Assembly (NCBI GenBank): GCA_040222015.1
Contig: JAVJWO010000087.1
Location: forward strand, 1 to 12,330
Length of the DNA stretch: 12,330 nt
Origin: Coleofasciculus chthonoplastes F2-STO-03
GTDB lineage: Bacteria > Cyanobacteriota > Cyanobacteriia > Cyanobacteriales > Coleofasciculaceae
Direction of reading: 5' to 3'
The first letter of the stretch is position 1. Each line of letters opens with the position of its first letter. The translations under genes were made by a program, and so were the position numbers. The notes under the pieces are model-generated. The model was not told where the DNA came from, searched no databases, and saw only the letters and a list, made by a program, of their open reading frames with translations. Positions 7,008 through 11,603 of this stretch are shown one piece after another.

Positions 7008-7077
7008 CCAATATTGTGTCGTACAATTGCTAACTTAACCGAAAACTCACTTGAATTTACCGATCCAATGTCAAAAA

Positions 7078-7860
7078 ATGTCAGCTAAGACTGGACTCAC
7101 CGCACGGCTCATTGAACTGTTTTCTGCCATTCAAGGTGAAGGACTCAATGTTGGTATCCGTCAATTATTCATCCGTTTGGCTCTGTGTGATTTGCGCTGC
7201 CATTTTTGCGATAGTCAGAATACCTGGACAGTTCCAGATTTAGCGGCTGTGGAACAAACTCCCGGAAATCGGGACTTTGAAGCTCATCCTAATCCCGTAA
7301 CCGTTGATCAGTTAATGACATGGGTTGAGCGGCAAAATTATCCAGGACTCCATGAAAGTATTAGTGTAACAGGTGGCGAACCCCTGTTGCAGGCTTCCTT
7401 TTTAAGAGAGTTTTTACCCGTGGTACGACATCAAACCGGGTTACCCATCTATTTGGAAACCGGTGGACATCGTCCGGAGCAACTAGCCCAGATTTTACCC
7501 TATTTAAATAGTATCGGTATGGATATGAAATTGCCGAGTGTAAGTGGGGAAGAGTGTTGGCTCGCTCATCGTCAGTTTTTACAACTTTGTCTGGATGCAG
7601 ATATTCAGTTTTTTGTCAAGCTGATTATTTCCCAAACAACGAACACCGCCGAACTGGAGTTAGCCGCCGAATTGGTTGCAGCGTGTAACCCCAGTATTCC
7701 CGTGTTTTTACAACCTGTAACGCCCCTAGCTAAACCCCATCATGCGCCAATAATCCCGCCAATGCCGACTCAAGTTTTAGAATGGCAAGGGTTGATGAAG
7801 CGCCATCTCAAATCAGTGCGCGTCATCCCCCAAACCCATAAGATGATCGGTCAGCTTTAG
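7078..7860 (+). CDS. queE: 7-carboxy-7-deazaguanine synthase QueE (radical SAM)
   Basis: ELFSAIQGEG, CDLRCHFCDS (CX3CX2C), SVTGGEPLLQ, YLETGG, VFLQPVT, C-terminal RVIPQTHKM. ATG at 7078 preferred over TTG at 7051. Confidence 0.9.
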   Translation: MSAKTGLTARLIELFSAIQGEGLNVGIRQLFIRLALCDLRCHFCDSQNTWTVPDLAAVEQTPGNRDFEAHPNPVTVDQLMTWVERQNYPGLHESISVTGGEPLLQASFLREFLPVVRHQTGLPIYLETGGHRPEQLAQILPYLNSIGMDMKLPSVSGEECWLAHRQFLQLCLDADIQFFVKLIISQTTNTAELELAAELVAACNPSIPVFLQPVTPLAKPHHAPIIPPMPTQVLEWQGLMKRHLKSVRVIPQTHKMIGQL

Positions 7861-8562: not shown

Positions 8563-8700
8563 TTCGTCCTCTGCCTTGTTTCGATTCCGGTGTTAGGTAA
8601 CTTCCCATGCTTCCAGACGTTTCACCGGAGGAGTCTCTAACTCTCACCACAATACTGATTCCGCCACCCCGTAGTTACCACACCGTAGCGCCAGATACGA
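8563..8700 (-). ncRNA. Candidate structured RNA immediately downstream of ffs (family not recognised)
   Basis: CGGTGTGGTAACT (8685-8673) pairs with AGTTACC-TA-ACACCG (8602-8588); an outer TCGT..TCTG / CAGA..ACGA stem and two inner hairpins; no ORF. Confidence 0.4.
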
Positions 8701-8703
8701 GAA

Positions 8704-8797
8704 GACCCGGAGTTCACGCCTATCCCAAGCATCTCGTATTGCTGCTACCTTCCGGTTCTGACAAGGTTTGAGCGTTGGGATTGCATGAATCCGAGTC
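8704..8797 (-). ncRNA. ffs: Signal recognition particle RNA (4.5S, small bacterial type)
   Basis: Minus strand contains TGTCAGAACCGGAAGGTAGCAGCA (helix 8 with GGAA tetraloop) inside a long hairpin closed by GACTCGGATTCA / TGAACTCCGGGTC. Confidence 0.95.
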
Positions 8798-8804
8798 ATT
8801 TACC

Positions 8805-8813
8805 ACTATAACA
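8805..8813 (-). promoter_or_regulatory. Extended -10 promoter of ffs
   Basis: Minus strand TGT-TATAGT, ending 7 nt before the ffs 5' stem. Confidence 0.6.
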
Positions 8814-8932
8814 GCTTTGAACCCCATTGATCAGTTGAGGGAGATATTTTCATCGCTTTACCTCGTGAGACTCCGGCTTCAGCGTTCGCTTGCGTGCGCG
8901 TAGCGCGTAAGCAAGCCGGAGAGGGATAGAGG

Positions 8933-10125
8933 TCAAACCGAACCGTTCGACGCGGCGAGGTTTGACAATCCAGTTGTAGGCACGACATTTCGACTTCGCT
9001 CAATGCGAACGATTAACCCCGTGCTTCGCTGCAACAACTGGACTTTTTTAGCAGTAAATTGCCCTAGTCGTTTCCAGTTAATATCGCTAACTGAAACCTG
9101 TTTTTTGGTGTCTCCAGAACACCAACCGGTGTAGGTCTTTCCGGCTTTTTCGGCTATAACCTTGTCACCCTTTCTGAACCCATGGCGGGTAACTGTGCCG
9201 CCATACTTGCGCCGTTTACCTCCCTTGGACGGAACACACAAGTGCAACTGTCTACGGCTAATTGGTGGTCTGCGGACTATTGCAAAGGGTGCAGGTGTGA
9301 TCTGAACATCGCCACACCATCCGCCATGTTTGGCATTGTCTGAGTGCCATTCTTGCCATCGGATGAACTCAAGCGCCGCCAAGGTTACACCATCAACAGC
9401 ATGGGTTGCAGGTGTCTGTTGATCCTTGTTTTTCTTGTCCTTAGCTAACCCTAGCCACTGTCTAAGTTGGCTAGTTCCATTGCCATCCCTTTGCCATCCT
9501 TGGTGAGTTGTGACGAGGGCTAATTCAGATAGCCAATTAAGCATTTGTCGCTGACCCACCATGACTGGAGAAAACCCAACGCCAGACCGAGCTGATTTGC
9601 GCCCGCTGGTTCTGTCCACATCAGCCATGACTAACACAAGCGTGAATGGCGCTAATGGGGAACAGCTTGAACAACTCTTTGACTACCCGTAACTCTAGCT
9701 GCTTGTTGGCTCGAATAGAGGGGGGTAATGGGTCCTTGTCTACGGTTATTAAACCTCTTTTGACGATGGCAGCGTTCAGAATAGGGTAGTTTCCGGTTAA
9801 TCCGTCTACCGCGTCTAGCTCGACGCATTACCCGTCGTAATTCCATCCGTTCCTTAACTGTTTTGAACGGTAAGACTAGATGCCCCATCCAAAGGGTGAA
9901 TAAACCCGACTGAACCCCGATCCCGGAATAAAGTTTCCCAGGATCTATGCCTACGGCTATAGGTTGAGTGTTTTCTTGAGTGTCAAAGGTTAGCTGGATG
10001 GCAAAGCCATCTAAGTCGTTGTGTACCACTTTGGCTTTACCCTCCTTTAGCCAACGTCTAGCGCGACTAGGTTTGGTGGGCATTAAAGGCTTACCCGACT
10101 TTGATAAAACTGGTACTCGTAGCAT
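8933..10125 (-). pseudogene. isrB: IsrB (RRXRR/PLMP, split RuvC, no HNH) RNA-guided nickase with two +1 frameshifts
   Basis: MLRVPVLSKSGKPLMPTKPSRARRW (PLMP), GIDPG (RuvC-I), Arg-rich bridge helix, THAVDG (RuvC-III), no HNH or CxxC block. A hidden third-frame segment LPPSIRANKQLELRVVKELFKLFPISAIH (~9729-9642) links track ORFs 9652-10227 and 8933-9637. Shifts near 9730 and 9638; repaired length ~396 aa. Confidence 0.85.
8985..9005 (-). repeat. SDR-like mini-element (core TGAGCGAAGTCGAA) in frame in the isrB C-terminus
   Basis: Minus strand CATTGAGCGAAGTCGAAATGT, exact reverse complement of 10154-10174; lies in the RIERSRNV peptide. Confidence 0.7.
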
Positions 10126-10372
10126 GGTGATAAACCTCACGAGTGAGTGTTTACATTGAGCGAAGTCGAAATGTAGTCCCTTCCCGCATCTAAACCAAGA
10201 TGTCCTAACCAAATAGCGACTTGACAAAAAGTCTTAGAGTGATCCGGACTAGGGAAGTATCCGGAAGTCTGTACCAGGTTTAGACTCAATGCGGATATTC
10301 AACGCTTACGTTGCTAGATTTGTCTCTAGCAATCCCTAACAGAGAAGCGATAGCTAGGTTAGGGTTGTTGAA
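10126..10372 (-). ncRNA. Omega-RNA (HEARO-like) scaffold upstream of isrB
   Basis: Stems CCCTAAC/GTTAGGG (10334-10364), TTGCTAGA/TCTAGCAA (10311-10332), TCCGGA-tacttccctag-TCCGGA (10243-10265) and long-range TCTAAACC/GGTTTAGA (10189-10196 with 10277-10284). Loop CTTCCC is complementary to downstream GGGAAG, a possible pseudoknot. Confidence 0.75.
10154..10174 (+). repeat. SDR-like mini-element (core TGAGCGAAGTCGAA) in the omega-RNA 3' part
   Basis: TACAT-TGAGCGAAGTCGAA-ATGTA, a core flanked by a 5-bp inverted repeat. Confidence 0.7.
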
Positions 10373-10635
10373 TCGGCAATGATGCACCATTCGTGAAGTT
10401 GGTATTTGACACAGTGATTTGCCACCAACGGATCTCCCTCAACGATCGCCTGTGCTTCTTGTTTTGAACTTGCTTCAAACAGGAGCATTCCTCCTCCTTT
10501 CTCCGCCCAGTAACCTGTTTTGGCTTGATGTCCTTTGGCAATCAAGTCTTGGACGTAGGCTTTATGAGCCGGAACATATTGGTCAAACGTAGGTTTATCG
10601 ACGATGCCTTCTTCTATCTTGACGAACCAGGGCAT
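10354..10635 (-). CDS. YciI family protein (last codons supplied by the inserted element)
   Basis: 93 aa; VPAHKAYV, GGGMLLFEA, DPLV and YQLHEW motifs. Confidence 0.85.
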   Translation of the reverse strand: MPWFVKIEEGIVDKPTFDQYVPAHKAYVQDLIAKGHQAKTGYWAEKGGGMLLFEASSKQEAQAIVEGDPLVANHCVKYQLHEWCIIADSTTLT

Positions 10636-10648
10636 TGGCTTTTTCCCA

Positions 10649-11197
10649 TCAAAACCGCAAATAGTACATTATCTCAGATATCAGGTCTGGGGGAAGGGCA
10701 AGGCGTCGCTGGAAGTCGGCTAAATTACGATAGTTACCCCTCTCTTGCCGATTTTGCACGATCGCTCTGGCAAAAAACAAGTCAACCCCAGGAATTCGGC
10801 TCAGTTGTTCCACGGATGCTGTATTCGCCGGAATCGACACGGGTGTTGCTGGACTTTCGGCGTCATAGTAACAAAAGCTGAGAATGGGTTGTAACGGCTG
10901 CAGTCGCGCCACAGGGATACTTAACGCCGCCGCAATATCCTCCAAACAGCAAAACTGTACCCCACTATTTGCCAATTCCACCAGCGATCGCGCTTGATGG
11001 ATAGATATTCCTGGTAATCTTAGCCAGTCATCCACCGTCGCTTGATTGACATCAATTCTCATCCCCAGCGCCACCGCCACCTCTATTTCTTGCGCTGATT
11101 GCAGCCGATAGTAAGGATCACTCTGAATCCGGGTTTGGATTGAGCGCCAGGTTGGGTTTAATCGATCCGTCGATAACAGCCAGTCAAACAGTGCCAT
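10649..11197 (-). CDS. Helix-hairpin-helix (ComEA-like) DNA-binding protein with two HhH modules
   Basis: IDVNQATVDDWLRLPGISIHQA and ANTASVEQLSRIPGVDLFFARAIVQNRQERGNY. ATG at 11197 avoids overlap with the upstream gene. Confidence 0.85.
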   Translation of the reverse strand: MALFDWLLSTDRLNPTWRSIQTRIQSDPYYRLQSAQEIEVAVALGMRIDVNQATVDDWLRLPGISIHQARSLVELANSGVQFCCLEDIAAALSIPVARLQPLQPILSFCYYDAESPATPVSIPANTASVEQLSRIPGVDLFFARAIVQNRQERGNYRNLADFQRRLALPPDLISEIMYYLRF

Positions 11198-11207
11198 CTT
11201 CTTTTTT

Positions 11208-11603
11208 TCAGGCGATACGATCCAGTAGTTGGCGACGCTTTTGCTCAAACTCATATTCTGACATCAATCCCTCCTGACGCAGCTTGTCCAGTTGTCGCAG
11301 TGCATCCGCGATCGCACCCACTTGCGCCGGATCAACCTCTGGGGATTGAATGGGTATCGATGTCCCGGTTGATATCAAATTCCCATTAAAATTTTGGTCG
11401 AATTGCTCCGAGTTTTGCAAAAGATACCACACTCCTTCAATGGCACTCGCCACTCTGGGAATCTGAGTCCAAGACAACAACAAATACACCACTCCCCACC
11501 AAGGTTGCCCCAGATAAAATTTGTGGAGTCCAGAAATAGGTGTCACTACCCCGCTAAACGCCAGTAAGGAAGCGACTTTTCGACTTTTCGGCTTGGTCAA
11601 CAT
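11208..11603 (-). CDS. TM2/NINE domain membrane protein with C-terminal SHOCT domain
   Basis: KSRKVASLLAF..GLHKFYLGQPWWG (TM2/NINE) and LRQLDKLRQEGLMSEYEFEQKRRQLL (SHOCT). ATG 11603 chosen; the upstream extension runs through low-complexity DNA. Confidence 0.85.
   Translation of the reverse strand: MLTKPKSRKVASLLAFSGVVTPISGLHKFYLGQPWWGVVYLLLSWTQIPRVASAIEGVWYLLQNSEQFDQNFNGNLISTGTSIPIQSPEVDPAQVGAIADALRQLDKLRQEGLMSEYEFEQKRRQLLDRIA

Follow-up and report, generated by a model that had tools for sequence, protein, structure and literature searches.

A young OMEGA element with a broken isrB gene at the yciI stop codon of Coleofasciculus chthonoplastes F2-STO-03

Between yciI and ffs, the gene for the signal recognition particle (SRP) RNA, the genome of Coleofasciculus chthonoplastes F2-STO-03 carries a 1,519-nt element that runs along the minus strand from 10372 to 8854 of the analysed stretch (the window: 12,330 nt, contig JAVJWO010000087.1 of assembly GCA_040222015.1; the genome itself is labelled G000). 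In identity and architecture this is very probably a non-autonomous IS200/IS605-family OMEGA (short for obligate mobile element-guided activity) element with an omegaRNA scaffold and a broken isrB gene. The yciI copy is a young, partly decayed IsrB element of a known kind, to which the published logic of guide, target-adjacent motif (TAM) and donor joint applies. Its continued activity is much less certain.

The boundaries of the element can be read directly. On the minus strand the junctions are ...TGG TGC ATC ATT GCC GA/TTCAACAACCC ... GAGGTAAAGCG/ATGAAAATATC (a slash marks each junction), exactly as quoted in a first-pass annotation of this DNA, which had placed an IsrB/omegaRNA element in the last codon of yciI; that placement is borne out by a protein match to DtIsrB (8DMB), a HEARO-like scaffold and empty alleles of the site. 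A search of 60 relatives for the yciI region found it, at 89-99% identity in yciI, in all eight that belong to the same genus, and none of these has the element. Six of these (L026-L031) read ...ATTGCCGA/ATGA..., or GCCGA/ATGA, and end yciI as ...IIAE-stop, which is the empty site GCC GAA TGA that had been predicted. In L032, from G008, and in L025, whose source G003 is the closest relative, GCCGA or GCTGA is followed by ATAA, and judging by these letters such alleles would be without a TAM. The 3' flank of the element (ATGAAAATATCTCC...) is identical base for base to the empty alleles. Between the empty GCCGA/ATGA and the occupied GCCGA-element-ATGA no target duplication is seen, as had been expected, and only the boundary pair 10372/8854 regenerates GCCGAATGA, so that an alternative left boundary one base earlier (GCC GAT GAA) is refuted.

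The same empty site is bridged by contigs X2 and X4 from two RNA libraries (environmental relatives, ~94% alike); the RNA-library contigs represent small shares (0.06-0.11 of words), and the four compared with the locus are, apart from the bridging of the empty site, pieces from relatives and other copies that say nothing of where an RNA of this strain begins or ends or how abundant it is. In the reverse direction, blastn finds clean empty sites in G000 for insertions of its relatives at six loci (L067, L068, L072, L074, L092 and L105). For the flank of a 391-nt mini copy, C208, no close match that could serve as an empty counterpart was found in the 20 relatives searched. Two further observations concern such sites. 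In G005 (L027) 16 nt of the empty yciI-ffs site are duplicated in tandem, namely the final 5 nt of yciI, the ATGA and another 7 bases. When L073 is compared with G000:C22:53947-53978, the occupied relative is without ~30 nt by which, in G000, the ATGA start codon is separated from the 5' flank, and these ~30 nt themselves start with ATGA.

The insertion has altered the end of yciI. Its native part extends from 10635 to 10373 and comprises 87 codons and the GA of codon 88; this codon, split by the junction (GA/T), now specifies D in place of E, and the remaining STTLT-stop (10369-10354) is element sequence. The gene retains 87 of 88 codons and gains a five-residue tail, and the open reading frame (ORF) closes with D-STTLT-stop, the replacement tail and stop that had been proposed from the sequence. 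The product is YciI-like by its Pfam score (Table 1).

A comparison of the copies of this family shows the same two ends. Three other full-length copies (C173, C216 and C178; 79-83% identical) are present in the genome, together with the ORF-less C208, which is 95% identical over the scaffold, and fragments; the closest copy overall is L055, at 87% identity, and the closest named IsrB loci, in Coleofasciculus metagenome-assembled genomes, have 82-89% identity. The copies examined start with TTCAACAACCC (0 or 1 mismatch) after unrelated 5' flanks and end ...GTCTCACG(A/C)G plus 6-10 nt. ATGA comes directly after 5/5 own-genome copies with both ends, after 26/26 right ends in own and related genomes and after 19/19 right ends in named public loci; this last set has genomes in common with the preceding one and does not count as independent. 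When the copies were collected and compared, their similarity began at TTCAAC and stopped before an ATGA that lies directly 3' of the junction in every copy, as the first-pass annotation had read it for the yciI site. On checking, the outcomes that this annotation had named as refuting it did not arise. On the 5' side, the base that precedes the element differs between copies (a, a, g, a, a, c), which leaves a fixed tetranucleotide on one side only. Given termini and an ATGA flank that are shared among copies with unrelated 5' flanks (5/5 and 26/26), the match at the yciI site is not due to chance. An inverted-repeat search detected no terminal inverted repeats between the two element termini; the TAM-side end has two subterminal hairpins, both with stems that compensatory changes preserve among the copies (Table 1).

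According to the ORF list and Pfam, no tnpA gene or other Y1 (HUH) transposase gene lies inside the element, and 17 PF01797 matches are found elsewhere in the genome. At four tnpA loci (C214, C178:67.6 kb, C58 and C204), the tnpA-proximal end is built like the TAM-side end of the element, with a hairpin, C(G/T)CTATCCCTC, a second hairpin and then GACTCCCGCGA or GTCTCACGAG, ~5-7 nt from the end. Mobilisation by TnpA in trans is plausible on the basis of this common build. The tnpA copy in C58 has an in-frame stop.

By its sequence features the protein of the family is IsrB, with an RRXRR/PLMP region, no HNH domain and a match to 8DMB. P0001, the product of the intact C216 paralogue (395 aa from ATG; a second intact paralogue is in C178), matches DtIsrB with an E value of 7.5e-47 over residues 2-370, and IscB chains match its residues 4-119 only. 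PF14239 scores 174.5 bits in the intact paralogue and 129 bits in the first frame of the yciI copy, with GKPLMPTKP in the translation, and no HNH family was detected at E<=1 in P0001 or in the isrB fragments of the yciI copy. In the paralogue, GIDPG aligns with DtIsrB VDPG and THAVDG with THANDA, and the placement of the Glu (HYE) is ambiguous. KRLGQ aligns with DtIsrB KRIGQ, its Q being the only Gln in the stretch; these residues are taken to be the counterparts of DtIsrB R323 and Q326, to which the accessible text of PMC9581776 assigns the reading of G and A in the TAM, and on that equation they would fit an xTGA TAM. The conserved KRLGQ and the ATGA flanks are the features that bear on a putative guide- and TAM-dependent nicking of the non-target strand. 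The longest open frame is at least 397 aa in 15 of the 22 elements examined. The other seven include four full-length elements with shorter frames (249 aa in the yciI copy, 313 in L066/C173, 293 in L072 and 291 in L077) and three truncated or mini copies (L005, L079 and L081).

The first ~250 nt of the element are a structured RNA of the omegaRNA kind and resemble HEARO. HEARO (RF02033) was the sole match in a permissive Rfam search (32.1 bits, E 2e-4, model positions 1-211, 10372-10168), and the match begins exactly on the first element base, 10372. In an alignment (A1) of 22 of the 24 recovered scaffolds, from which L069 (its insertion is that of L004) and L062 (whose 369-nt region contains a large insert) were left out, 30 of 52 consensus pairs have compensatory changes, which argues for a real structured RNA of this kind, and the scaffold helices are intact in the yciI copy. 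A hot spot for insertions into the scaffold lies between GGGAAGGGACT and the Shine-Dalgarno region, at A1 columns ~275-360 (L070, L077, L003 and L079); depending on the copy, it holds a repeat arm, a nested 45-nt insert or heptamer-repeat arrays.

What is known of related systems suggests where the guide would lie. In the available text of bioRxiv 10.1101/2023.03.14.532601, the IscB guide is encoded just outside the right end (RE) of the element, transcription enters from outside in co-orientation with an upstream gene, and the scarless donor joint is the target. DtIsrB has an NTGA TAM, nicks ATGA targets and uses a 20-nt guide, and two cyanobacterial IsrBs have NTG, according to the accessible text of PMC9581776; the ATGA found here fits these published TAMs, in keeping with the NTGA-type TAM named in the first-pass annotation. 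By analogy with DtIsrB, the guide of the yciI copy is presumed to be 20 nt long. The 20-mer, and likewise a 16-mer, occurs once in the genome, where TTCAAC and not ATGA comes next, so the genome holds no self-target. A guide that is formed by the 3' end of yciI and made by yciI read-through agrees with what the preprint describes for IscB, and the order of parts fits the published geometry: co-oriented yciI, guide source (10392-10373), scaffold, isrB, left end (LE) and ATGA.

These parts can be combined into a mechanism. A Y1 TnpA acting in trans would insert the single-stranded element directly 5' of ATGA (3' of TCAT on the transposase strand) without target duplication, and the ATGA targeted in this case would be the one that contains the yciI stop codon. 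Transcription out of yciI would yield an RNA in which the last ~16-20 nt of yciI, as the guide, are fused to the scaffold from the first element base. IsrB loaded with this RNA would recognise only the element-free allele, where the guide match is followed by ATGA, and would nick it; by the published donor-joint logic, this nick could promote renewed copying of the element, either once it has been excised or into a sister chromosome that lacks it. The protein would be supplied by the intact paralogues in C216 and C178, from which it must come if the two frameshifts in the isrB of the yciI copy are taken into account. We infer transcription by read-through, the guide length, trans-complementation, nicking and homing from the arrangement of the locus and from published systems.

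Several findings weigh against this account of the element. One is that isrB is a pseudogene here, with two single-base insertions and rewritten HYE codons; the insertions divide it into three frames of 191, 68 and at least 234 aa. The first-pass annotation had noted a frameshift; there are two, and the HYE region is also rewritten. The HEARO score is far under the Rfam gathering score of 83, and by the Rfam criterion the scaffold is not a member of that family. Between this scaffold and the scaffolds of the intact paralogues identity is only ~74-80%, which makes trans-loading uncertain, and small inserts in the hairpin loop and the scaffold could impair recognition by TnpA or binding by IsrB. 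At the three tnpA loci where the ends were read (C214, C178 and C58), the flank is TTGA and not ATGA. A scan of 8600-11300 for promoter-like and terminator-like sites gave 0 and 0, as compared with 2.6 and 2.7 expected in shuffles, and is uninformative for cyanobacterial promoters. Finally, homing has been shown for TnpB and IscB and not for IsrB, which is a nickase, as far as the accessible text of PMC13565253 goes.

As read from its sequence, the yciI copy is non-autonomous twice over, lacking tnpA and having a broken isrB, and any activity would need both IsrB and TnpA in trans. This invites the view that it is a dead relic, an immobile and non-functional fossil with neither RNA-guided activity nor transposition, in which the geometry of guide and TAM is only history. 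The two frameshifts and the rewritten HYE region are what such a fossil would show, as are three small inserts relative to L055, and the genome holds no close full-length source copy: the best are 81-83% identical, and 95% is reached only by the mini copy C208 (391 nt), over the scaffold. However, the insertion is young, being absent from 8/8 same-genus relatives including one that is 99% identical in yciI, the scaffold helices have stayed intact, and intact genes for IsrB and TnpA are available in the genome. The first frameshift is also common to the yciI copy and C173, which are only 81% identical overall. Copies that were already broken have therefore transposed, and the element does not need its own IsrB to move. 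A dead relic is on these grounds rather unlikely, although it deserves to be taken seriously.

The same common break could be read as programmed frameshifting, that is, as a recoding site through which full-length IsrB is still made in both copies. The identical position of a single-base insertion in two such divergent copies, and a run of C after the insertion in the yciI copy, are in its favor. However, a second shift would be required ~90 nt later, at a place where no other copy has one, the site is not a known slippery heptamer, and the 15/22 elements with an open frame of at least 397 aa are without the insertion. Recoding is accordingly an extremely improbable explanation, and the reading of a pseudogene served by intact paralogues is preferred.

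The small inserts of the yciI copy form a group of their own. Two of them, ~21-24 nt each, make up a 33-nt inverted repeat (I1, 88%) that brackets isrB, and the third, of 24 nt, enlarges the loop of hairpin 2 (8885-8908). L055 lacks all three, as do most of the 22 elements. A 19-nt core of the insert occurs 1-13 times in each of nine genomes of the genus, with 0 occurrences for a reversed control. The inserts resemble the small dispersed repeats (SDRs) of cyanobacteria, which were reportedly described by Elhai et al. 2008. A functional long-range omegaRNA/mRNA helix formed by I1 was considered and rejected as a core feature, given that its arms are inserts missing from L055 and most copies and have a dispersed core. 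It is possible that I1 has a role in generating ORF-less mini copies such as C208. That copy (G000:C208:23903-23513, identical with L005) retains the omegaRNA scaffold and the TAM-side end; its join, with a 23-nt tandem duplication in it, falls within the repeat arms, and the copy occupies the stop codon of a 224-codon open frame.

The position of the yciI insertion, on a stop codon, has parallels among the other copies. With open frames of 90 codons or more considered, 4/24 unique insertions have the TGA of the TAM as the stop codon of such a frame, and in 11/25 a co-oriented frame of this kind begins with the ATG of the TAM. Nine of the 11 downstream ORFs encode Pfam domains whose match begins close to residue 1 (FolD, PdxH, Mur ligase, inositol monophosphatase, OMP decarboxylase, GDSL, SIS, TPR and TPS). 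Among all ATGA sites of G000, 1.05% are at stops and 12.9% at starts; a null of 'tolerated' sites with a crude gene map gives 1.9% and 18.5% (binomial P 0.001 for stops and 0.003 for starts), and the observed shares are higher than both backgrounds. These figures come with crude gene calls, related genomes and no more than a rough model of purifying selection. In the literature searched, no description of such a pile-up of this family's sites on start and stop codons was found. The original HEARO paper is said perhaps to have mentioned integration next to ATGA or GTGA.

These counts may suggest a general habit of docking at codon boundaries, of which yciI would be one instance: the ATGA target/TAM would steer insertions onto the start (ATG-A) or stop (A-TGA) codons of co-oriented expressed genes, or selection would retain them there. 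The idea is a tentative one, with the odds somewhat against it. If it is true, the element would lie inside a host transcript, its external guide would be transcribed and no codon would be destroyed; at start codons, the host gene (folD, pdxH, Mur ligase and others) would be expressed through or out of a 1.5-kb element. A pattern of this kind, if real, would tie the choice of TAM to guide transcription and host tolerance.

The position also raises the question of domestication, in which the element would be kept because its RNA or the read-through is of use to the host, for instance as a modulator of yciI or ffs expression, rather than because it promotes its own retention. Its location, with the yciI stop codon on one side, the ffs promoter region on the other and yciI staying open, would suit such a regulator, and family members often adjoin host start codons. 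However, only one of the nine genomes of the genus has the insertion at this locus, which gives no sign of conservation, and the 52 nt upstream of ffs are unchanged relative to the empty alleles. A domesticated regulator is thus very unlikely.

The coordinates of the features are collected in Table 1. Elsewhere in the window, a tRNA gene (62.4 bits) is found on the minus strand at 995-1068, and the other genes named by Pfam are DUF3318 at 8501-7857 and a radical SAM gene at 7051-7860.

Table 1. Features of the yciI copy, its surroundings and related loci; positions refer to the window unless a contig is named
Feature	Position	Strand	Basis or remark
Whole IsrB element, non-autonomous, IS200/IS605-type	8854..10372	-	Empty sites in 8/8 same-genus relatives; termini common to paralogous copies
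Host-DNA ATGA, the target/TAM tetranucleotide; includes the native yciI stop codon TGA	8850..8853	-	Once in empty and occupied sites alike
Presumed guide source, 20 nt of yciI directly 5' of the element	10373..10392	-	Position relative to scaffold start; length from DtIsrB
omegaRNA scaffold (transposon RE side), first element base to isrB start codon	10126..10372	-	HEARO-like match and alignment A1
~21-nt SDR-like insert in 3' part of scaffold; 5' arm of I1 (10149-10181)	10151..10172	-	Absent from L055 and most copies
isrB pseudogene, first frame, ATG at 10125; PLMP/RRXRR and RuvC-I	9652..10125	-	PF14239, 129 bits; translation
First single-base insertion (frameshift) relative to intact copies, common to C173	9730..9733	-	DNA alignments with C216, C178 and L055
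Second single-base insertion and substitutions at HYE-coding stretch, unique to the yciI copy	9635..9641	-	DNA alignments
isrB pseudogene, third frame; RuvC-III HAVDG, TAM-interacting domain with KRLGQ	8933..9637	-	Translation; paralogue aligned to 8DMB
24-nt in-frame SDR-like insert near isrB 3' end; 3' arm of I1 (8978-9010)	8987..9010	-	Copy comparison
Subterminal hairpin 1, TAM-side (LE) end	8932..8966	-	Stem kept by compensatory changes among copies
Subterminal hairpin 2, TAM-side end; loop GCTTCGCT in other copies, 24-nt insert 8885-8908 here	8871..8921	-	Copy comparison
yciI ORF as now read, 93 aa	10354..10635	-	ORF list; PF03795, 28 bits, above curated cut-off of 24; relatives end ...IIAE-stop
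ffs (SRP RNA), downstream neighbour, 56 nt from element end	8701..8797	-	RF00169, 62.8 bits
ComEA-like HHH_3 gene	10649-11254	-	Listed among the genes of the stretch
tnpA loci	G000:C214:18850-19800, C178:67350-68320, C58:1-1000, C204		Two with ~23-nt insert in hairpin loop
Stop-codon insertions	yciI copy 8850-8853, L005, L068, L100		
Start-codon insertions	L004, L055, L060, L067, L068, L070, L073, L074, L075, L079, L080		

The locus introduces no new principle; its value is that it displays, cleanly and in nature, how OMEGA donor-joint logic would apply to the nickase IsrB. One can read the element, its guide source, the TAM and the untouched alleles, and a single genome combines paralogues both intact and broken, a mini copy without an ORF and candidate transposases. 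With many young insertions and matching empty sites, the genus would be a good place to test whether a nick suffices for homing.

Among known systems, the closest comparison is with DtIsrB of Desulfovirgula thermocuniculi (8DMB), CwIsrB and DsIsrB. In the accessible text of PMC9581776, these proteins have the same PLMP/RRXRR region, split RuvC, lack of HNH and C-terminal TAM-interacting domain, and they likewise have a long 5' omegaRNA upstream of the ORF and a TAM of the NTGA or NTG type. The family described here differs in its length, ~395 aa as compared with ~350, in the frameshifted yciI copy, in a scaffold with lineage-specific small inserts and in a TAM that we infer from 26/26 genomic flanks. 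HEARO RNA (RF02033) shares the full-length alignment from the first element base and the location upstream of an IscB-family ORF, whereas the score here is 32.1 bits as opposed to 83 and the partner protein is HNH-less. Within the genome, the tnpA elements of IS605 type (C214, C178:67.6 kb, C58 and C204) share the build of the end, with NTGA following in the three that were read; unlike the yciI copy, they carry tnpA, have a TTGA flank and lack an IsrB scaffold. In its genomic habits the family is like the Geobacillus ISGst IscB and TnpB elements, which in the available text of bioRxiv 10.1101/2023.03.14.532601 also have a guide just outside the RE, a TAM at the LE that is the transposase target, a scarless donor joint, co-orientation with an upstream gene, copies that mostly lack tnpA and ORF-less derivatives resembling palindrome-associated transposable elements (PATEs), the equivalent here being C208 (391 nt). 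It differs from them in having the nickase IsrB where those elements have IscB, a double-strand cutter, in ATGA in place of an AT-rich pentamer, and in its cyanobacterial host.

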